Origin: Escherichia coli | GTDB taxonomy: Bacteria; Pseudomonadota; Gammaproteobacteria; Enterobacterales; Enterobacteriaceae | Strand: one strand, 5' to 3' | Length of the DNA: 64,000 nucleotides | Assembly: GCF_016903815.1 (NCBI RefSeq) | Contig: NZ_CP069972.1 | In this document: positions 2,947 to 47,400 of the stretch, one piece after another | Layout: each line of letters begins with the position of its first letter | Numbering within the stretch: the stretch's first letter is position 1 | Notes under the pieces: model-generated | Told to the model about the DNA's origin: nothing | The model's database searches: none | The model's input: the letters and a program-made list of their open reading frames with translations, nothing else | Program-made: the position numbers and the translations under genes

Positions 2947-3761
2947 AAGCACTCACCTCTCTCCTTTTGCCAGTAATACTGCTTACTGGTTGTTCTTCTT
3001 CCCCTACCATCTCGCCAGGTGGTGTCAATACGCCACCACCTGACATTAATGCATGGCTTAAACCACGAAGTGAAAAGCCGGATAGTCTGTCAGAAACACG
3101 CTGGAAAATGCTGACAGACGCAGGTAAAACGCTTGGATTTCGTGGTGGCAAGGCTCAGCGTTCATGGGAGCTGATTCAGGCGCTCAACGCCCGGGAAAGC
3201 ACACTTAATGCCTTATACGATTTCCGGCCACTGATTAGCCCGGAAGGCTGGCTACCACCGGTTATTGATGAAGCACAGGACGTAGCTCATATCACGCCAG
3301 ATCAAATCCGGACCTCTTCCCGGGTCTGGACCATCATTCGCCCTGAACGCTTTGTCAGCAATCCACCGGGCTGGCGTGACTGGCTTCTCCGGGGGCTTTC
3401 AACAACAGCCACTCCGGGTACAGAAGGCAGCGTCGTTCCAGAAGACAGCGTGCAACGAAAAGTGTGGGAAACCGCATTACGGCAGGGATGGCAGGAAGGA
3501 AGACAAAACGCCGACCTGACGCTTGAAGCCAACCAGAAAACCCTCACCCGTGATTACCGGGGCATGATGCTGTACTCACTTCTCTGGCGTCAGGGCATGA
3601 TCACCCGTCCGGATGTTTCTGATCAAATGCAAACCGTTACAGGTGACGGGAAAAAACTGGTCACTGGAGATCGTGTTCGTCGCCTTAAAAATCATGCGGA
3701 ATTCAATCTTCAGAAATCTCACTGGCGTCCGCTTATAGGCACTGAAGGAGGCTCCCGATGA
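2943..3761 (+). CDS. traI: TraI-like lipoprotein (272 aa), Dot/Icm-type
   Basis: Lipobox ILLTGC; translationally coupled to traH and traJ; operon position. Confidence 0.6.
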   Translation: MKALTSLLLPVILLTGCSSSPTISPGGVNTPPPDINAWLKPRSEKPDSLSETRWKMLTDAGKTLGFRGGKAQRSWELIQALNARESTLNALYDFRPLISPEGWLPPVIDEAQDVAHITPDQIRTSSRVWTIIRPERFVSNPPGWRDWLLRGLSTTATPGTEGSVVPEDSVQRKVWETALRQGWQEGRQNADLTLEANQKTLTRDYRGMMLYSLLWRQGMITRPDVSDQMQTVTGDGKKLVTGDRVRRLKNHAEFNLQKSHWRPLIGTEGGSR

Positions 3762-4906
3762 ATATTCCTGATGAGTTTGGTCTTTTTCCGTTTCAGCGTT
3801 TCACTGCAGATGAACTACGGCATTTCTTTGTCTGGTGTGCCTCACATAAAGTCAGTGATGTGGATCTGACCGGCGGGTCACCTGTATCTGTCAGTCGCTT
3901 TGGCCGACGGGTGCGTTGTTCCAGTGCAACGTTACCAACCACACTCATGTCCTCCCTGATTGATGAACTGTTCGGTCGGGAAGTCATTCCCCGCGTTCTG
4001 GCAGGCAATCCGGTTGACAGGACGATACAGATTAACGGGGATGCATCCGGGCGCTATGGTCTTAAACGCGGAGAACGCATCCGGTTACGCTCTCACCTCA
4101 TTCAGGGCACATCTGGTGCGGAGGAGAAAGCAATCTCAATAACCATGCGTGTCATCCCGACAGAAATACCGGACATTCTCTCCATGAACATTGAACCAGA
4201 CCTGCTTGAAGCAATGGTCTGCAAAAGCGGTCTGGGATTTGTATGTGGTGAAACCGGGTCAGGAAAATCAACGCTGTGTTCAGCACTGTACCGTTACATT
4301 ATGGACAATTTCCCCGACGCCAAAATCGTGACATATGAAGACCCGGTGGAATATATCCTGGGAAATGAAAACGATCTGCTCCCACCGCATCAGGCAGAAA
4401 TCGGGCGTGATGTGGTCAGTTTTGCTGCCGGACTGCGTTCTGCTGTACGACGTAATCCCGAAATTATCGGTGTTGGTGAGATCAGGGATAACGAAACCGC
4501 CGACGCAGCGGTACAGGCAGGCAACACCGGGCATTACTGCCTGAGCACCATGCATACGAAATCTCCTGGTGAAACGCTGGCACGTCTTCTTGGGCTGTTT
4601 CCCCCTGTCATCAGGGATTCGATGGCCTGGGCTGTCCTGTCACTGTTGCAGTTCATTCTGGTTCAGGTTCTGGTCAGAACAAATGACGGTGGTCGTAAAG
4701 CCGTCCGGGAATATATCGTCATTAACGATGAGCTTCGCGACAATCTTTCCGGAATGCCGCATGCAGAGTGGGGGCATCACATTGATGCCATAATCCGGCA
4801 GGAGAAGCGCCGTATCCGGGACCAGATTCTGGAAATGTATATCCGGAATGAAGTTGACCGAAGAGAAGCGATTCTTTTTATCCCGCCAGGGGAGTTACGG
4901 TCATGA
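3758..4906 (+). CDS. traJ: TraJ, VirB11/DotB/PilT-like secretion ATPase (382 aa)
   Basis: AGGAGG RBS; Walker A GETGSGKST; size and position match IncI1 TraJ as I recall it. Confidence 0.85.
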   Translation: MNIPDEFGLFPFQRFTADELRHFFVWCASHKVSDVDLTGGSPVSVSRFGRRVRCSSATLPTTLMSSLIDELFGREVIPRVLAGNPVDRTIQINGDASGRYGLKRGERIRLRSHLIQGTSGAEEKAISITMRVIPTEIPDILSMNIEPDLLEAMVCKSGLGFVCGETGSGKSTLCSALYRYIMDNFPDAKIVTYEDPVEYILGNENDLLPPHQAEIGRDVVSFAAGLRSAVRRNPEIIGVGEIRDNETADAAVQAGNTGHYCLSTMHTKSPGETLARLLGLFPPVIRDSMAWAVLSLLQFILVQVLVRTNDGGRKAVREYIVINDELRDNLSGMPHAEWGHHIDAIIRQEKRRIRDQILEMYIRNEVDRREAILFIPPGELRS

Positions 4907-32539: not shown

Positions 32540-32572
32540 GGCCGCGCCGGATTCTGGCGCGGCCTTTTTTTT
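32540..32572. terminator. Bidirectional terminator between convergent trbC and nikB
   Basis: GGCCGCGCC-loop-GGCGCGGCC then T8. Confidence 0.65.
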
Positions 32573-35270
32573 AACCTGGAGAAGGCGGTTCCCAGCGTTT
32601 ATCCTGCTCCGGCGGAGGCAGTGATGCGTCATCGTTGCTGTTCGCCGCGATATAATCGCGGTAGTAGCGTTCACTTCCTTCACGGTGATGATCCACGTCC
32701 GGTCGCGTAATCCTGTAGTCTTCGTGACCGGTACGGCCTGTCACATTATGCCAGGCAACCATTTCAGCAAAGACCTGGTTAAATTGTTTGTCGTTTCCTT
32801 CTGGTTCAAAACCCATGCGTGGATCACGCCCGAATAATACCGGTGCAATCAAATCCAGTTTATCTGCCAGCGCATTGCGGTCATGGTGATTACGGAAAAC
32901 AACCCTGTCACCATAATCCGTACAGACAAACTCTCCCGTCCGACGATCACGGAAACGAACACTCCCGTTCTTCTGCAAACGGGCCTCGAGATCACCGGTA
33001 TTACCGTATACCGGCGTTCCGCCCGGTTCACAAAGCACGACACAGCGGTCTGTTGTCGTTGTGCGTGACTTATCTTTACGGCGATCGCGATAATCCCAGC
33101 CTCTCAGCTGCGATACAGCAGCCCTGTCTCCCTGAGCAGCCTGAATTTCGACCCACTGACGGTAAGAGGGTGGATACCACTTCCCGTCAGCAATAAGTTT
33201 CTGCCGCTCATTCCTGATGTCTTCTTTCAGCCTGATCAATGCCTGCATTCGCTGAACTTCTGCAATGTGATAATGCAGCTTACGTAATGCCGGATCATCG
33301 TACTGCGCACGAATGTGTGACTTCCGCAGACGGCATGCCTGATGAATTTCCCGACAACGTTCCCCATAACGCAGATCTGGTTTACGCCATTGTTCACGCC
33401 ATGCCAGATAGCGGGCACGCAGGTCAGCACGGGCCTCAGCTCTGGCTTCACGTCGCTGCCGGCGCAGCATTGGGTCACGTTTACTGCTGACCCCGTACCT
33501 GTCACTGACAGCCAGCTCCGGGTTATAGCGACTTTCAGGTTGCACCCTGTCAAACAAATCTGCTGGGGCACTCACAAAAGGTCCGGCCTGTGGCTCTGCA
33601 CGCCCCAGAGTCAGATCAGGATGAATGCTGCTGGCCTTCACCGGCGTTTGCTCATGATTAAAGGCATCAACGACAACAAGCCCGTGATGTTGTTTCTGTA
33701 GCATCAGTCCCTGTTGTGCAAACAACTCATGACAACGCTGCCAGGTAAACTCACCCTGTGTGATCATTTCTTCAATCTGAGGGCTACAATGGCTGATGCT
33801 GTATCCCCACAGACTTTCTTTGTCAGAAAACAGTTCGCGTTTGATAGCCCCCTGCGGCCCCGTACCTGTACGCATACGGTGCCATTCTTTATCGGTCGCA
33901 GGACAGCTCTCCATACGACGACCACGGAAGCGTTCTGTTGGCGTAACCTGGAGGAAAATATCTGTTGGTACAGGCTGCCAGCCACCATCGAGTTGATTCA
34001 CATTGTCGAGCGTCAGCAGTGACCATACGCTGTCAGCACGAACGGGAGTCTGGTTATGATCATAACCGTCACAGATAACCAGGTGACCATGCTGAACACG
34101 CATCCATAATCCCGCTTCAGCCAGTGTGCGGTGAATAGCCTGGCAGTTTTCCAGCCGTCCTTCCCGTGCCATTTCCGGCAGACGTTCTCCAAGATGACGA
34201 CAGGCATACTGCTGCAGACTTTCTGTTTCAGCGATTTTTTCCGGGCGAACATCAGCTGCAATGAAGTCCGGATTATAGCGTCCTGGTGCTTCCACCTGGC
34301 TGAAAATGTCTTTTGGTACTGGCGTGTAGTCACCCATTTTTTTCATGAGTTTTTCTGCACACCAGGAGGGACCAAACGAGTCAAGCTGTACACCTTCCCT
34401 GTTGCGATCCCAGCCATCCATCACCAGAAATTTTCCGTCCATCTGAGACAGGTACAGACCATCTTCCGCAAGACGACGATGCAGGGATAACCAGTCATTT
34501 ACAGGTTCACTGCGTAAACCAGCGACCGCTGTCTGCGCGACATACTCGCGAAAAGTTTGTTTTTTTCCGCGTGTCCAAGCGTTCTGGCGATCACGTTCAA
34601 CGGCAGTTTTGCGAACGATACGATTTCCCGGCGCATGGACCCAGCAACCGTTATCCGGAGCAAAACCATGCTTCAGTTCAAGCTCACGGCAGGCACGACT
34701 GAGTTTTTCCTGACTCCATGATAATCGGTTCAGATAACCCGTTTCAGGGTGTACCCGGTTAACAGCCACATGGACGTGCAGATTATCTGTATCAGTATGC
34801 ACGGCAGAGACATACTGATGGTCGGCAAGGCCGAGTGATTTCAGCGTATGACGTACACTGTCATAAATCTGTTCCGGACGCGGGCTTTCATGTGACTGCC
34901 AGGAAAGGATGTAGTGAAAAACAGGATCAGTGTCATCTTTTGCATAGTGTGCCTGCCGGGCAATGTACTCCATATCTGCAGCGGCAGTTTCAAGAGAAGT
35001 ACAGTTATGAAAGCAGGTGACACCATAAAAGTTGACCCATTCGCAGCCGTCCTTCATGACATCAACCAGCGCCACGAATGACTCATTTCGAAGACGTGTC
35101 GCATAATCAACAAGGCGACTGAAACGGCTTCGGTGCGGTTGTTCAGCCTGCGAAGAAGAAGATAAATCCAGTTCCTCATCGGTCATGTCATCCCGGACAG
35201 AGACGTAGGATACCAGGTCTTCGAACGAAGACTTGCCGTCCCTTCTCTTTTTCGGAATGACTGCATTCAC
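32571..35270 (-). CDS. nikB: NikB, MobP-type relaxase (899 aa)
   Basis: Histidine triad ...NLHVHVAVNRVHPETGY; 899 aa; immediately downstream of nikA/oriT. Confidence 0.9.
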   Translation of the reverse strand: MNAVIPKKRRDGKSSFEDLVSYVSVRDDMTDEELDLSSSSQAEQPHRSRFSRLVDYATRLRNESFVALVDVMKDGCEWVNFYGVTCFHNCTSLETAAADMEYIARQAHYAKDDTDPVFHYILSWQSHESPRPEQIYDSVRHTLKSLGLADHQYVSAVHTDTDNLHVHVAVNRVHPETGYLNRLSWSQEKLSRACRELELKHGFAPDNGCWVHAPGNRIVRKTAVERDRQNAWTRGKKQTFREYVAQTAVAGLRSEPVNDWLSLHRRLAEDGLYLSQMDGKFLVMDGWDRNREGVQLDSFGPSWCAEKLMKKMGDYTPVPKDIFSQVEAPGRYNPDFIAADVRPEKIAETESLQQYACRHLGERLPEMAREGRLENCQAIHRTLAEAGLWMRVQHGHLVICDGYDHNQTPVRADSVWSLLTLDNVNQLDGGWQPVPTDIFLQVTPTERFRGRRMESCPATDKEWHRMRTGTGPQGAIKRELFSDKESLWGYSISHCSPQIEEMITQGEFTWQRCHELFAQQGLMLQKQHHGLVVVDAFNHEQTPVKASSIHPDLTLGRAEPQAGPFVSAPADLFDRVQPESRYNPELAVSDRYGVSSKRDPMLRRQRREARAEARADLRARYLAWREQWRKPDLRYGERCREIHQACRLRKSHIRAQYDDPALRKLHYHIAEVQRMQALIRLKEDIRNERQKLIADGKWYPPSYRQWVEIQAAQGDRAAVSQLRGWDYRDRRKDKSRTTTTDRCVVLCEPGGTPVYGNTGDLEARLQKNGSVRFRDRRTGEFVCTDYGDRVVFRNHHDRNALADKLDLIAPVLFGRDPRMGFEPEGNDKQFNQVFAEMVAWHNVTGRTGHEDYRITRPDVDHHREGSERYYRDYIAANSNDDASLPPPEQDKRWEPPSPG

Positions 35271-35280
35271 CGGAGAATCC

Positions 35281-35613
35281 TCAACCTTCCATTAACTGTT
35301 TACGCAATGTATTTGTAAGTTCGGTTATGGCAACAAGCACTTCTGCGTATTCCTTGTCACCGGTTCTTTTTCCCTGAACAAACAGATGCTTCTGCATCCT
35401 TCCCAGTCTCATTAACTCCTTCAGAAAAGCATCATCTGTCCGGGAGTTAATTCGCTTATTCAGTGCTGCATTTCGGATGTAAGCAGATACAGTAAGTCCG
35501 GAATCTTCAGCATTCTTACAGATAGTTTCATCCTCATCCGGTGAGAACCGGACCGCTCTCAGGATCGTCTTTTGCCGTCTTTCACTACCACTTCTTTGAC
35601 GTTTATCACTCAC
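35281..35613 (-). CDS. nikA: NikA, RHH relaxosome accessory protein (110 aa, GTG start)
   Basis: AAGGAG 7 nt upstream of GTG 35613; protein VSDKRQRSGSERRQKTILRAVRFSPDEDE...; track ORF extends 29 codons further without RBS. Confidence 0.85.
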   Translation of the reverse strand: MSDKRQRSGSERRQKTILRAVRFSPDEDETICKNAEDSGLTVSAYIRNAALNKRINSRTDDAFLKELMRLGRMQKHLFVQGKRTGDKEYAEVLVAITELTNTLRKQLMEG

Positions 35614-35619
35614 GGTCAG

Positions 35620-35720
35620 CTCCTTACTGGGGTGTCGGGGCGAAGCCCTGACCAGGAGGCAATTGTATAATCGCGCGTGCGCGGTTATACAATTGCACAT
35701 CCTGTCCCGTTTTTCAGTCC
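35620..35720 (+). other. oriT: oriT: 10-bp inverted repeats flanking a GC core (35661-35694) and IncP-like nick motif ATCCTG|T (predicted nic 35704/35705, + strand)
   Basis: AATTGTATAA-N14-TTATACAATT followed by GCACATCCTGTCCCG directly upstream of nikA. Confidence 0.65.
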
Positions 35721-35845
35721 ATTATAGCCTGTTATTTTTGTGCATCATAGTCTTATGCAGACGGCAGAGGCAGGGCGCAGCCCTGCCAGGAGTCAGTTTT
35801 TGATGATAAAATCAGGCTTCAACATTAAACGGAGAGAAAGTGCCA

Positions 35846-36181
35846 ATGGCGTCTAAAAAATTTTACTCAGATGATGACATCCAGCTGGCAAAAGCTGCTT
35901 TATCGGAATTGCCAGACCTCACCGCTCAACGGAAAACATTGCGTGATTTTCTTGATGCCATTCGTGATGACATCATTATCCTGGTAAGGACAAAGGGTTA
36001 TACACTGACAGATGTTCGTGACACGCTCAAAAATGCAGGATATGAAGTAGGAGAGAAAGCACTTCGTGACATTATTCGGGAAGCAGAATCGAAAAAACCA
36101 TCCCGCCGTTCTTCCTCTAAAACAGCACCTAAAAAGACAGACTCAGGCAGGAAAGATGGCATCGATATGAACAACAATTGA
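35846..36181 (+). CDS. Hypothetical protein with K/R/S-rich basic tail (112 aa)
   Basis: GGAGAGAAAG RBS before ATG 35846; C-terminal KKPSRRSSSKTAPKKTDSGRK. Confidence 0.4.
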   Translation: MASKKFYSDDDIQLAKAALSELPDLTAQRKTLRDFLDAIRDDIIILVRTKGYTLTDVRDTLKNAGYEVGEKALRDIIREAESKKPSRRSSSKTAPKKTDSGRKDGIDMNNN

Positions 36182-36266: not shown

Positions 36267-37118
36267 TCAGACTCGTGGCGGCAATGCACCAGGATAATGC
36301 CGTGCAATAATATCATTCAGTTTTTCAACAAGGTCAGAACGCTTAAAGACAATGTGTACGGTCCCTTTCTGGTAGCCACGCACCGTAAAATATTCCCCTT
36401 CTAACAGCTTACCGACATTGTCACCGTTCCCGAGAAATTCACCATACTGCGCCCCGATGCTGTTCCTGAAGTCAGGAACGTTGCGCCCCTCCAGCAGATA
36501 AAACGGACGTACCAGGTCATCCAGTGCCTCCCGTCCGCTGCAGTCCAGCGTCACACGCCCGTTACTCCAGCGGTACAGTAGGTTTTCAATAATTATTTTC
36601 TTACCCAGACGGCAGGGATTATTGGTTCTGTAATCCCATGACAATTTCCGGTAGACATCAATCAGCCCCTGTTCAAACGTCTGCATCTTGCTGGCATTAA
36701 GATGGCGGAATGTTGCCAGTACATTGTCCAGGGTGATTTCAGGACAGGTGTCGCTCATCAGCTGGCTGTTCCACTCATCACGCTGGCATGAACTCATGAA
36801 GGTGTACATGCCCGTATCTGTCATCAGGCGGTCCCAGATTTTCCGGTCGGCAAGACGGGTGATATTCCTTTTCGCTTCTTCCGTCTTATCCATGCGACGA
36901 ACGGAATCAGTCACGCAGTCTTCAAACCCGTAAAGAAAAATATCACCTGACGCATCGAGCAGAATCTTGCGCGCTGTCGCCAGGCATTCCATCGCCTGCA
37001 TGAACAGTGCAATACCTTCGTTACGCTGCGCGATGATGCGGTCGATAGCTACAGACGGAATAACATCTGTCGTGCCGGCAGTATTCAGGTCAGCAGTGGG
37101 TAAAGTCTGATTCATCAC
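36267..37118 (-). CDS. Leading-region protein of unknown function (283 aa)
   Basis: Long ORF directly downstream (on - strand) of repeat A1; no motif recognised. Confidence 0.55.
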   Translation of the reverse strand: MMNQTLPTADLNTAGTTDVIPSVAIDRIIAQRNEGIALFMQAMECLATARKILLDASGDIFLYGFEDCVTDSVRRMDKTEEAKRNITRLADRKIWDRLMTDTGMYTFMSSCQRDEWNSQLMSDTCPEITLDNVLATFRHLNASKMQTFEQGLIDVYRKLSWDYRTNNPCRLGKKIIIENLLYRWSNGRVTLDCSGREALDDLVRPFYLLEGRNVPDFRNSIGAQYGEFLGNGDNVGKLLEGEYFTVRGYQKGTVHIVFKRSDLVEKLNDIIARHYPGALPPRV

Positions 37119-37159
37119 ATTGTCTCCTCATCGTCACGACTGCCGGGTCAGCCAGGTCA

Positions 37160-37495
37160 TTTCCCGGAGGAGCGAAGCTCCTTCTGCCGTCCGGGTCTTC
37201 GGGGATTTCCCCGCAGTGGACCTTTCCGACGGGGGACGCTCACCACGTCACGGGGCAGTTGTCCGGGGGCAGACGCAAAAGTTTTTGACGCCTGCGGCAA
37301 AAAGTTTTGTGGCTGGTACATCTCTCCCCTGGACGACTGAAACGGGATGTGGTCATGTATGTACCCCCGGAAAGTCCGTCTGCGGAGAACAGGCCGCAGT
37401 GCGGCGGCAGACAGGCAGAGACAGCTGCGCCATCAGGCGCAGTGGCCTTACACACCGTAAGGTGTGCAGGGAGCGCCGCATACGGCGCGACTGAA
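37160..37495 (-). repeat. Family-A GC-rich structured repeat, copy 1 (Frpo/ssi-like single-strand promoter candidate)
   Basis: ~335 bp highly similar to 40553-41055 and 46898-47400; many internal inverted repeats. Confidence 0.6.
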
Positions 37496-37592
37496 GAAAA
37501 ACGACGGCACAACAATGGCATGTGGTGGTCACTGGCACACCACTCCCGCACAGGTGAAAACAGAGAAAACCGCACGACATTTACAACCAAAA

Positions 37593-37680
37593 AAAGTGAA
37601 ATTTCTTCACTTTTTCACGCTTATTTTTCGCGTTGATTTGGTGATTATGATGATAAAATAAAGTGAAATTTTTTCACTTT
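37593..37680 (+). promoter_or_regulatory. Two AAAGTGAAA/TTTCACTTT palindromic operator-like sites bracketing a promoter-like TTGATT..TAAAAT
   Basis: Inverted repeat 37593-37616 and perfect 21-bp palindrome 37659-37679, directly upstream of HTH gene. Confidence 0.45.
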
Positions 37681-37694
37681 TTCAAAGGTGTTTT

Positions 37695-37946
37695 ATGACC
37701 GGCTGGGAACTGCGAATCTGGCGAAAAAGCATGCTCTGGTCACGCGAAAAAGCGGCCAGAGAATTTGGCGTGACGCAGAGAACATGGCACGCCTGGGAAA
37801 ATGCGGAACAGGTGGACGTCACCGTCTGGAGGACCACCCAGGCACTTTCAGTCCGTGACCTGCTGCCTCACATGCAGGGGATGCGTAAGGCAGATATCAT
37901 CAGGCGACTGGAAAATGAACTGGGGGAAACGGCAGGGAATGTGTGA
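37695..37946 (+). CDS. Small HTH DNA-binding protein (83 aa)
   Basis: HTH-like WSREKAAREFGVTQRTWHAWE; preceded by palindromic operators. Confidence 0.5.
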   Translation: MTGWELRIWRKSMLWSREKAAREFGVTQRTWHAWENAEQVDVTVWRTTQALSVRDLLPHMQGMRKADIIRRLENELGETAGNV

Positions 37947-37976
37947 GCGTGATTCACAGCCTGGCTGAATGCCAGG

Positions 37977-38159
37977 CTACTGCTCATCAGGAAACAGCTT
38001 TTTCAGTTCTTCACCGGAAAGTCCCGTGACCTCCTGAATCCGTTCCAGCGGCCAGCCTATATCCCGAAGCCGGCAGGCTATTTCCCGCGCCACTTCAAGA
38101 GCCCCTTGTTTAAAACCCTCGTCGAAACCTTTCTGTATAAGACGTTCTGCAATCGTCAT
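37977..38159 (-). CDS. Free-standing Rpn tail-domain ORF (RpnS-like, 60 aa)
   Basis: MTIAERLIQKG...TGLSGEELKKLFPDEQ parallels the C-terminal tail of the adjacent Rpn protein; lies after the rpn terminator; SD weak and distant. Confidence 0.45.
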   Translation of the reverse strand: MTIAERLIQKGFDEGFKQGALEVAREIACRLRDIGWPLERIQEVTGLSGEELKKLFPDEQ

Positions 38160-38221: not shown

Positions 38222-39148
38222 TCAGTGAGTGATTTTCTTCAGTTCGTCATCGGAAAGTCCGGTAGCCTGCTTAATCTGCTCCGGCGTCATCCCCATTTTC
38301 TGAAGCTGGCACGCAATAGCCAGGGCTTTTTCAAGCGCTCCTTCCATGCGTCCTTCCATGCGTCCTTCCATCCTGCCTTCCTGGCGACCTTTTTGCTCAA
38401 GACGTTCTGCGATAGTCATCAGTTTATCCTCATGCTGCGGCAGACGCTCAGCCAGCGCCCGCATAAATTCCGGTGATACAGAGTCCCCTGCGTTAACGAT
38501 GTAATGAATCAGAACACGCACCTGCTCGTCTGAAATTTCCACCATGACCTGCGGGAGTTTGTCCAGCAGCTCCATCATGTCACGATGGCGGATATGCTTC
38601 ATCAGCAGCGTCAGTGCGGCCATCCGGCGATGGTTCATGATTTCATTGTCATCAACGACAGTGATATCAACCAGCGGAAACGGCTTTGTGTATATTTTAG
38701 CCGCAAGTGCCGGATTCTCAAAACAGTCCAGCCAGTTCATGCTGTACGGGTACGGGCTGCGCTCACCGTGATAGAACAGCACCGGAATCACCAGTGGCAA
38801 CGTTTTGTGCTGCTCCAGATGTCTCTGCATCGCCGCCACACTGTAGCGTAACATGCGAAAAGGCATGTACAGATTTTCTGTGCTCTGGTGCTCGATGAGC
38901 GTATAAACATAACCATCTTCACCCCCGGTGGTTTTCACGCTCCAGAGGATATCGCTGGCGTACTGATGCAGGTCCGGCTCAACAAAGGTGGCGGGTTCCA
39001 GCTTCAGCGTGGACAGGTCGCACAACTGCCGGTACTCCGCAGGAAGATGCAGTTCCAGAAAATCCCTGGCAACGTCGGGATTCGCCAGGAACGACCGGAA
39101 CGCGGCATCATGCGGCGTGGGCGTTGTGGTGTTTTTCTTCTTACTCAC
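38222..39148 (-). CDS. Rpn-family (YhgA-like) recombination-promoting nuclease (308 aa, GTG start)
   Basis: GGAGG before GTG; N-terminal domain with ...YVYTLIEHQSTEN... motif; C-terminal tail with (EGRM)3 repeat; internal in-frame ATG 38419 with GAGGA SD. Confidence 0.75.
   Translation of the reverse strand: MSKKKNTTTPTPHDAAFRSFLANPDVARDFLELHLPAEYRQLCDLSTLKLEPATFVEPDLHQYASDILWSVKTTGGEDGYVYTLIEHQSTENLYMPFRMLRYSVAAMQRHLEQHKTLPLVIPVLFYHGERSPYPYSMNWLDCFENPALAAKIYTKPFPLVDITVVDDNEIMNHRRMAALTLLMKHIRHRDMMELLDKLPQVMVEISDEQVRVLIHYIVNAGDSVSPEFMRALAERLPQHEDKLMTIAERLEQKGRQEGRMEGRMEGRMEGALEKALAIACQLQKMGMTPEQIKQATGLSDDELKKITH
38340..38387 (-). repeat. Tandem 12-bp coding repeat (CCTTCCATGCGT x3-4) encoding EGRMEGRMEGRMEG
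   Basis: Direct tandem copies inside the rpn tail. Confidence 0.8.
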
Positions 39149-39534: not shown

Positions 39535-39710
39535 TGTTATCTCCAGCCCTCCCGGGCCCTGAATGAAAGAGAATCTGTTTCCCTTTTCTGTTTTTTGTGG
39601 AGACACCATGCAACACAGACGTCGTGATGTTTTTCATCTTGCTCACGGTTCCTCCTGGTAAAGTACCTGAACACATCCTGCCACCTGCACAGGCAGACGG
39701 CAGGGGTTAA

Positions 39711-40504: not shown

Positions 40505-40552
40505 GAAAACGTCTCCTTCTGCTGAATCAGGTCGCCGGGCCGACCGGTTGCT

Positions 40553-41055
40553 CCCCCGGAGGGGCGAAAGCCCCTTCTGCCGTCCACTTCTTCGGGGTTT
40601 CTCCCCGCAGTGGACCTTTCCGATGGGGCAGCGACTGCCACGGCACGGGGCAGTTGTCCGGGGGCAGACGCAAAAGTTTTTGACGCTTGCGGCAAAAAGT
40701 TTTGTGGCTGGTACATCTCTCCCCTGGACGGCTGAAACGTGTTGTGGCCGCTTCAGCCCCCGGAAAGTCCACAGCGGGGAAACAGGCCGCAGGGGGGGCG
40801 GCGGAAGGGCAGACAACTGCGCCATCAGGCGCAGTTTCCTTACACACCGTCAGGTGTGCAGGGAGCGCAGGTCACGGCGCGACAGAGGCGGCGCGACCGG
40901 AACGGTCGCTGCAAGCCTGGTTTTTCAGACATCGGACCGTAGCGGCAGCCCGAAACCGCGCCAGCGGGTTCGGCGGAGACTGGCGGGTGCGCCAGCAGCT
41001 GCCTGTCGGAGTCGGGCCTGACGACCGGATGCCGCCAGGCAGCCGGGAGCCGAAG
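40553..41055 (-). repeat. Family-A repeat, copy 2 (Frpo/ssi-like)
   Basis: ~500 bp; near-identical blocks shared with copies 1 and 3. Confidence 0.6.
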
Positions 41056-46832: not shown

Positions 46833-46897
46833 AAGAACCTCCTGACTGAAAGATGTGAGATAAACCGGATACCGGCGACGGGACGTTCATGTGCCCC

Positions 46898-47400
46898 TTC
46901 AGAGGAGCGAAAGCTCCTCCTGCCGTCCACTTCACAGGGGTTTCTCCCCGCAGTGGACCTTTCCGATGGGGGCCCGTTTACCGCCTCACGGGGCAGCTGT
47001 CCGGGGGCGGACGCAAAATTTTTTGCCGGGTTCATGGCTAAAAATTTTGTGGCCGGTGCATCTCACCCTGGACAGATGGAACGGGAGGGGGTTACGTCTG
47101 CCCCCCGGAAAGTCCACAGCGGGGAAACAGGCCGCAGGGGGGGCGGCAGGAGGGAGGACTGCTGCGCCATCAGGCGCAGTTTCCTCACACACCGTCAGGT
47201 GTGCAGGGAGCGCAGGTCACGGCGCGACAGGGGCGGCGCGACCGGAACGGTCGCTGCAAGCCCGGGTTTTCACGCATCGGACCGTAGCGGCAGCCCGAAA
47301 CCGCGCCAGCGGGTTCGGCGGAGACTGGCGGGTGCGCCAGCAGCTGCCCGTCGGAGTCGGGCCTGACGACCGGATGCCGCCAGGCAGCCGGGAGCCGAAG
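46898..47400 (-). repeat. Family-A repeat, copy 3 (Frpo/ssi-like), upstream of ssb
   Basis: ~500 bp near-identical to copy 2; right edge is where the intron begins. Confidence 0.6.

Follow-up and report, generated by a model that had tools for sequence, protein, structure and literature searches.

A small gene in the leading region of an IncI1/B/O plasmid of Escherichia coli probably encodes a late, negatively autoregulated repressor of its own promoter, a reading to which we give a probability of about 0.7. The product is an XRE-type helix-turn-helix (HTH) protein, and two near-identical palindromes bracket the promoter of its gene. We refer to these as the distal and the proximal operator, O1 and O2. 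A first-pass annotation of this DNA had already noticed the palindromes, the promoter and the open reading frame, and had proposed an autoregulated repressor. Our analysis, which is based on sequence comparison, supports these points with small corrections to the coordinates of the palindromes. It does not support a further proposal, that the protein is a timer that switches off the early genes of the plasmid.

The window, by which we mean the whole 64,000-nucleotide stretch that was analysed, makes up the complete 93-kb IncI1/B/O plasmid together with the remaining 29 kb (L006). The region is 100% identical to the IncI1/B/O plasmid RCS90_pI (E. coli ECOR24), and the annotation was taken from the record of that plasmid. 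The main features are collected in Table 1. Loci that were compared with the window are cited by number where needed, e.g. L038 for a Salmonella variant of the region.

Table 1. Features of the HTH gene and its surroundings, with positions in the window
Feature	Position	Strand	Basis and remarks
nikB (relaxosome)	32571-35270	-	RCS90_pI record
nikA (relaxosome)	35281-35700	-	RCS90_pI record
oriT	between ~35700 and ~35840		RCS90_pI record
DUF4942 gene (methyltransferase-like)	36267-37118	-	divergent from HTH gene
ssi3, class-1 Frpo-like ssDNA promoter element	37140-37500	-	drives DUF4942 gene, back-to-back with O1
Distal operator O1, AAAGTGAA-ATTTC-TTCACTTT	37593-37613		sequence, repeat finder, pattern search
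Candidate -35 hexamer, TTGATT	37633-37638	+	read from sequence, inferred; 15-bp spacer to -10
Extended -10, TGaTAAAAT	37651-37659	+	sequence; TG 37651-37652, TAAAAT 37654-37659
Proximal operator O2, AAAGTGAAA-TTT-TTTCACTTT	37660-37680		sequence, repeat finder, 9-mer count, pattern search
Shine-Dalgarno, AAGGTG	37685-37690	+	sequence; 4 nt 5' of ATG; kept in L007, L038, L039
XRE-type HTH gene, 83 aa, WP_000148286.1	37695-37946	+	ORF list; ATG at 37695
Hairpin, AGCCTGGC-TGAAT-GCCAGGCT	37958-37978		sequence; 30-bp gap between convergent HTH gene and Rpn-tail-like ORF
Rpn-tail-like ORF, 81 aa	37977-38222	-	convergent with HTH gene, stops 30 bp apart

The arms of O1 are 8 nt long, or 10 nt when the A/T flanks are counted (37591-37615), and those of O2 are 9 nt long. 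O2 had been described as a perfect 21-bp palindrome at 37659-37679; the palindrome is there, but it lies one base further on, and 'perfect' amounts to 9 of 10 possible pairs. Both operators fall within a 29-nt direct repeat reported by the repeat finder (93% identical, 67 bp from start to start). The 9-mer AAAGTGAAA occurs three times in the 64 kb, where 0.67 occurrences are expected, and all three are inside O1 or O2. Exact matches to AAAGTGAA-N5-TTCACTTT are confined to O1 and O2, and just 0.39 matches are expected even when 3 mismatches are allowed.

The promoter-like TTGATT..TAAAAT of the first-pass annotation is located between the two operators, with a 15-bp spacer and a TG-extended -10. 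Because of this spacer it is absent from a scan limited to spacers of 16-18 bp. O2 starts directly after the -10 and so overlies the expected transcription start, while the centre of O1 lies ~63 bp upstream of it. A 65-aa 'hypothetical protein' of RefSeq (WP_024187428.1, 37464-37661, + strand) shares its sequence with the end of ssi3, with O1 and with the promoter. Since the Salmonella variant does not conserve this stretch, that ORF is probably spurious.

On its 3' side the HTH gene converges with an ORF that resembles the tail of an Rpn nuclease. The hairpin between the two lacks a U-tract and drew no call from the terminator scan. The ORF stands directly downstream of an Rpn nuclease gene (38222-39148, - strand), which carries an (MEGR)n repeat, and it duplicates the C-terminal tail of the nuclease. 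It has a weak match to Pfam HTH_Rpn_C, in L038, and calls to mind the small intragenic Rpn antitoxins. The convergent arrangement noticed earlier is present in the window but is not conserved on other plasmids, and we rejected a functional link between the HTH gene and the Rpn tail gene, since the pairing is not kept in relatives.

The 83-aa ORF on the + strand is a real gene. Its product matches Pfam HTH_31 (i-E=1e-4 over residues 3-40) and HTH_3 (E=0.022), which is modest but consistent. An AF2 model built from 21 family sequences has a pLDDT of 90.6 and is a bundle of five helices (residues 3-12, 17-24, 28-35, 42-60 and 65-81), of which the second and third make up the HTH. When this model was searched with Foldseek, all of the top matches were XRE repressors or antitoxins, Aca2 first, with E-values that are weak (0.07 or above) for a domain that is small. 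Between the window and L038, whose protein is 84% identical, dN/dS is 0.083 (dS 1.26), thus the reading frame is under strong purifying selection. At least 1000 contigs encode the exact protein, and 2019 PLSDB plasmids contain the region, with tblastn relatives in 3694. PADLOC and NCBIfam searches of the protein returned nothing significant, an Rfam scan returned nothing close to gathering scores, and the matching PHROG (6962) is a group without known function. We found no paper on the HTH gene or its palindromes, nor on its binding, transcription start or expression.

Comparing the window with L038 gives a footprint of the regulatory region. Upstream of O1 the two sequences cannot be aligned, and the 46-nt spacer between the operators is only 48% identical, although its length is the same. 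L038 keeps O1 at 16 of 19 positions, O2 at 17 of 19 and the 67-bp spacing between them. The extended -10 is retained as TGATAGAAT and the -35 is loosely conserved, as TTTATC.

The same architecture is seen across a wider family. Scanning a single genome per species gave 30 homologous loci in the Enterobacterales, at 30-53% identity, from Escherichia, Pantoea, Erwinia, Yersinia, Rahnella, Buttiauxella, Citrobacter, Enterobacter, Hafnia, Providencia and others. An AAGTG-N9-CACTT palindrome abuts a -10-like hexamer in ~25 of the 30 loci, 31-35 nt (sometimes 43-65 nt) before the ATG. About 12 loci have a second, distal copy 55-57 or 64-67 bp upstream, often less perfect than the proximal one (L018-L023, L025). 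The difference between the two classes of spacing is roughly one helical turn, which in a small and non-independent sample fits binding on a conserved face. Three operators, at -144, -88 and -33 from the ATG and with a 55-56-bp periodicity, are found in the Buttiauxella loci L018, L019 and L020, where the two distal copies have a GCCC variant in one half-site. Other loci have a single operator only (L010, L013, L014 and L016), therefore O1 is accessory. Most relatives have a poor -35, and the TG extension is absent outside IncI1.

Some homologues lie further afield. Two are encoded by phages, Klebsiella phage SopranoGao (L041, 2501-2719) and Erwinia phage PEp14 (L042, 2501-2722), with ~50% identity over 60 aa and membership of PHROG 6962. 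Both genes stand alone, in opposite orientation, between terS and terL, and in SopranoGao an imperfect GTGCA...TTCAC-like palindrome follows a TATAAT box. A distant paralogue (32% identity) is found on a pOXA-48-type IncL plasmid (L002, 4543-6556) within a co-directional operon. It overlaps a gene with the annotation 'restriction endonuclease', is not preceded by a palindrome of the AAGTG type, and may represent a different functional branch of the family.

The operators vary together with the recognition helix of the protein. Proteins with K32 (21 loci) have the half-site AAGTGCA(A/G), and the H32 proteins of IncI1 and the Salmonella group have AAGTG(A/T)A(A/G). K32 combined with R33, in three loci, goes with AAGTGxCA, and Q32, in two loci, with ATxTGCAG. 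In the alignment with Aca2, position 32 corresponds to Q33 and the near-invariant R29 to R30, and both of these Aca2 residues contact DNA in the Aca2-DNA structure. This co-variation, drawn from four operator classes that are phylogenetically non-independent, makes it very likely that the HTH protein is the cognate binder of the palindromes. The L038 footprint, the family architecture and the co-variation together indicate that the palindromes are functional.

The second strand of our proposal, that the protein is made late, comes from the orientation of its gene. The leading region lies at coordinates above oriT, and here the DUF4942, Rpn, ardA, psiA, psiB, ParB-like and ssb genes are all on the - strand. 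Transfer starts with the leading region and the transferred strand moves 5' to 3', therefore the + strand is the transferred strand; that the known early genes ssb, psiB, psiA and ardA are all on the - strand argues for the same assignment. The template of the - strand genes is then the transferred strand, as has been described for early genes on both IncI1 and F plasmids (PMC12672017; PMC11541004). For the HTH gene the transferred strand is no template, therefore it would be expressible only from double-stranded DNA. An experimental precedent is available from the F plasmid, where the oppositely oriented YgfA protein appears only 10-20 min after conversion from single- to double-stranded DNA (PMC9849209). 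The strand geometry and this precedent support the earlier suggestion that the gene is expressed only after complementary-strand synthesis, and by both the HTH protein would be a 'late' product inside an 'early' region. The sole other leading-side gene oriented like the HTH gene is a mobC-like gene next to oriT (35840-36181, + strand). It keeps this orientation in all syntenic loci and, by the same argument, should be dsDNA-dependent too.

At least 14 related loci share the gene order nikA (-), mobC-like (+), DUF932/DUF4942 (-), HTH (+) and psiA/psiB/ParB-like/ssb (-), and the HTH gene is opposed to the genes templated by the transferred strand in all syntenic loci. The family is probably family 22 of Samuel et al. 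2024 (Supplementary Table 1), listed as 'HTH transcriptional regulator; aca6' with 2333 members. Position, orientation, neighbour and family size all fit: that family has a median position of 2, an orientation of -1, a DUF4942 family adjoining at position 1 and WP_151333485.1 as its representative. If so, the existence and the opposed orientation of the family have been catalogued already, but not its operators and their logic.

We propose that dimers of the HTH protein occupy the two AAGTGAA-N5-TTCACTT palindromes around the promoter of its gene. As O2 is placed immediately downstream of the -10 and over the start, its occupancy would block RNA polymerase and result in negative autoregulation. 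O1, 67 bp or a little over six helical turns upstream, most likely raises occupancy, by cooperativity or by bending of the AT-rich promoter. The outcome would be a low, buffered level of the HTH protein, made from a promoter that exists, and a template that becomes available, only after complementary-strand synthesis. We infer that the protein binds as a dimer and that it represses and does not activate, and likewise what O1 contributes and when the protein is made. The autoregulated repressor proposed by the first-pass annotation is favoured by the XRE-type fold, the location of O2 over the start, the footprints and the recognition-helix co-variation. On the other side, the -35 is weak and the spacer short. 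A weak -35 throughout the family, with no TG extension in most relatives, means that O1 could activate rather than help to repress. A protein whose only target is its own gene is also biologically incomplete, with a second target or function missing. Two of the alternatives, bidirectional control and activation followed by repression, are refinements of autorepression and do not contradict it.

The first of these is an Aca-like bidirectional control. The HTH protein would then also shut a dsDNA promoter between O1 and O2 from which leftward transcription runs across ssi3 into the DUF4942 gene, with O2 covering the leftward -35 and O1 acting as a downstream roadblock. The ssDNA promoter would supply an early burst of expression, and the late repressor would silence the double-stranded copy. 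We think this unlikely, but there is evidence to weigh. The nearest solved relative, Aca2, is an anti-defence regulator. One - strand promoter-like site is found, GTGAAA-16-TATCAT (37677-37650, 9/12), with its -35 in O2 and its start upstream of O1. However, this promoter is weak, and its -10 is the reverse of the extended -10 on the + strand, so its conservation is uninformative.

The neighbourhood of O1 bears on the same question. When 37119-37700 is folded as ssDNA the predicted energy is -138.5 kcal/mol (z = -10). The window has three homologous class-1 ssi/Frpo-like copies (~37140-37500, 40533-41055 and 46876-47400), which match Frpo1/Frpo2 of F and each head a leftward leading-region operon; ssi1-3 have been described as ssDNA promoters (PMC12672017). 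A sequence search for class-1 ssi beside the homologues of the HTH gene gave matches in IncI1 and F alone, therefore the neighbours were compared by ssDNA folding energy instead. By this measure the back-to-back neighbour of the HTH module is always an element that folds strongly and resembles an ssDNA promoter; in IncI1 this element is ssi3. Such an adjacency follows trivially when an opposed gene lies between two co-directional operons, and so is no evidence of coupling alone.

A cassette of a RelE/HigB-type toxin and an HTH antitoxin, with its own twin ATTCGTAC..GTACGAAT palindromes, is relevant here as well. In four loci of Yersinia, Rahnella and Enterobacter (L012, at 3157-3990, L017, L030 and L031) it is inserted between the distal and the proximal operator. 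The distal operator is intact beside the hairpin element, ~845-1120 bp off. That O1 stayed unchanged beside the folding element after the insertion keeps open a role for it towards the leftward operon. Nevertheless, the insertion may be a single recent event, and several relatives have no O1.

We also considered whether the DUF4942 gene is M.EcoGIX with a class-3 promoter, and rejected this. The adjoining element is a class-1 ssi copy, so the DUF4942 gene is probably not M.EcoGIX, which may instead be the ParB-like 652-aa gene.

A more speculative extension, doubtful in our view, is that the module is a plasmid counterpart of the phage acr-aca circuit. Strand polarity would provide the delay, and a clamp formed by O2 and O1 would keep the double-stranded oriT-proximal operon silent. 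Anti-restriction-type genes could fire from ssDNA promoters on entry, with the repressor arriving only once the DNA is double-stranded, and resident HTH protein might also work in trans, at these sites on related plasmids that enter the cell. If this were true, the 'opposed HTH insulator' could be a general design among mobile elements, as the opposed phage homologues between terS and terL would then suggest.

Could the protein activate before it represses? In a switch like that of the controller proteins of restriction-modification (R-M) systems, low levels of protein at O1 would activate the weak promoter, and high levels would fill O2 and repress it, giving a delayed pulse. The poor -35 across the family is in keeping with this, as is the want of a TG extension outside IncI1. 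The placement of O1 and the often less perfect distal copies agree with it too: in loci outside IncI1 the distal operator is centred ~53 bp, rather than ~63 bp, upstream of the inferred start, a shift of about one helical turn. We nonetheless regard such a switch as improbable. An operator spacing of 55-67 bp is unlike that of adjacent C-boxes, there is no regulated downstream gene, and the relatives with a single operator retain a promoter.

The timer of the first-pass annotation fares much worse, and we consider it very unlikely. The HTH protein would build up after conversion to double-stranded DNA and directly switch off the early leading-region genes. This is in line with a gene that is expressible only late and with the leading-region repressors of other plasmids, e.g. 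the regulator of the establishment genes of pLS20 (PMC6294495), ArdK and KorC. However, a count of other sites on the plasmid leaves O1 and O2 as the only two in 93 kb. With arms at up to 3 mismatches there is no third operator in the window or the remaining 29 kb, barring one core-less match at 39566-39586, and operator half-sites occur on the plasmid at chance frequency. The exception, AAAGAGAATCTGTTTCCCTTT, differs from the operator at 2 positions and precedes a hypothetical gene by 32-52 bp, counted from the start given in RefSeq. We judged it a chance match, since it does not have the GTG/CAC cores, which are invariant, and L038 does not carry its gene.

Beyond this plasmid, near-matches to O2 in 5426 complete E. 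coli genomes fall at 2811 plasmid places against 31 chromosomal ones (31/2842), with a median of 2 per genome, and an operator-like match is present in about a quarter of the genomes (1335/5426). The early leading-region genes run from ssDNA promoters, which are inactive once the DNA is double-stranded (PMC12672017). Given this inactivation and no operators elsewhere, a timer has no cis-element to act on. Furthermore, no repressors of conjugation emerged when an I-complex plasmid was studied by TraDIS. Judged by its binding sites, the HTH protein is not the off-switch of the ssDNA-promoter genes, as the sole strong sites on the plasmid are its own.

Two further ideas can be dealt with briefly. 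That the protein is an orphan antitoxin or anti-addiction factor, with a toxin partner encoded elsewhere and the palindromes as TA autoregulatory sites, is highly improbable: HipB and HigA2 are among the best sequence and fold matches, but there is no toxin-like ORF in the operon in the window or in ~35 loci, the HTH gene is monocistronic and convergent with its neighbour, and the antitoxin-family matches are far below the curated cut-offs (NCBIfam, 13-15 bits vs 62-79). We give just as little credence to the idea that the palindromes are hairpins of the transferred strand or of RNA, i.e. terminators or structural signals independent of the HTH protein: O1 and O2 do fold as small hairpins in the ssDNA prediction, with T-runs after the right arms, but the stems have just 2 G-C pairs and are AT-rich, the left side has A-runs that mirror the T-runs and the terminator scan made no call, while an invariant outer AAGTG/CACTT and inner bases that track the recognition helix argue for protein readout and not stem stability.

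IncI1 plasmids are major carriers of ESBL genes. Research on plasmid establishment centres on the 'early' genes of ssDNA promoters, and the HTH gene is a conserved, dsDNA-only exception in the leading region. It has a clean, testable cis-regulatory architecture; the kind of circuit is ordinary, whereas the constant opposed orientation is unusual. If the protein regulates only itself, it is a routine autorepressor. Should it also control the neighbouring operon, or act on plasmids that come in, the early-to-late switch would gain a second layer that is based on a protein. The pairs of operator and recognition helix also form a small natural specificity series for XRE/Aca2-like proteins.

How does the proposed autorepressor compare with known systems? 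The ygfA gene of F is, like the HTH gene, an opposed leading-region gene near oriT. It encodes a lytic transglycosylase, however, and is not homologous to the HTH gene. The HTH protein is labelled 'YgeA' in R64-style annotations; we dropped the idea that its gene is a homologue of F ygeA or ygfA, as these names are positional and the genes unrelated. By annotation, no leading-region gene in F 56-68 kb (leading region to traJ/traY) is an HTH regulator. KorC of RK2 and ArdK of R388/pKM101 are repressors of leading-region or establishment genes, with zygotic induction followed by shut-off. Repressors of this type have operators before several establishment genes, whereas the HTH gene has them at its own promoter alone.

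Controller (C) proteins of R-M systems are XRE proteins of ~80 aa that bind two palindromic sites at their own promoter and delay expression in a new host. Their C-boxes are adjacent, in contrast to the 55-67 bp between the operators of the HTH family, and C genes precede an endonuclease gene. No R-M genes adjoin the HTH gene in the window, and among its relatives an endonuclease-type neighbour is known just for the distant pOXA-48 paralogue. The type II antitoxins HipB, HigA2 and MqsA share the XRE fold and act as small dimers on multiple palindromic operators at their own promoter, but the HTH gene has no cognate toxin gene.

The nearest solved relative is Aca2, the anti-CRISPR-associated repressor of phage ZF40 (PDB 7ezy, 7vjo-q), which is both the top match of profile searches against the PDB (7ezy_A, E=7e-5 for A1 and 2.8e-3 for A2) and the first by Foldseek rank. 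The two proteins are 42% identical over the first 38 residues, recognition helix included, and Aca2 R30, which is required for DNA binding, is kept as R29. Aca2 is an autorepressor from the early region of a mobile element, with two similar inverted repeats in the promoter and 5' region and an inverted-repeat core of TTCG...CGAA (PMC6765145). The HTH gene likewise has two similar inverted repeats and, on the evidence of its sequence, would repress itself. The differences are nevertheless considerable. With 83 aa against 116-125 aa, the HTH protein is without the C-terminal dimerisation domain of Aca2: the alignment stops near residue 68-70, the model has just two C-terminal helices and the target-normalised TM-score is 0.31-0.40. 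Aca2 follows an acr gene in one operon, whereas the HTH gene is monocistronic, with its promoter and operators directly upstream and a convergent gene downstream, in the window as in syntenic loci. The operator cores also differ (AAGTG-N9-CACTT here, TTCG-N6/8-CGAA for Aca2), and unlike those of Aca2 the repeats lie 67 bp apart around the promoter of a gene that is opposed to its neighbours. Lacking the dimerisation domain, the acr gene and the Aca2 core, the HTH protein is best filed as a putative XRE autorepressor related to the Aca2 HTH domain, and not as a member of Aca2.
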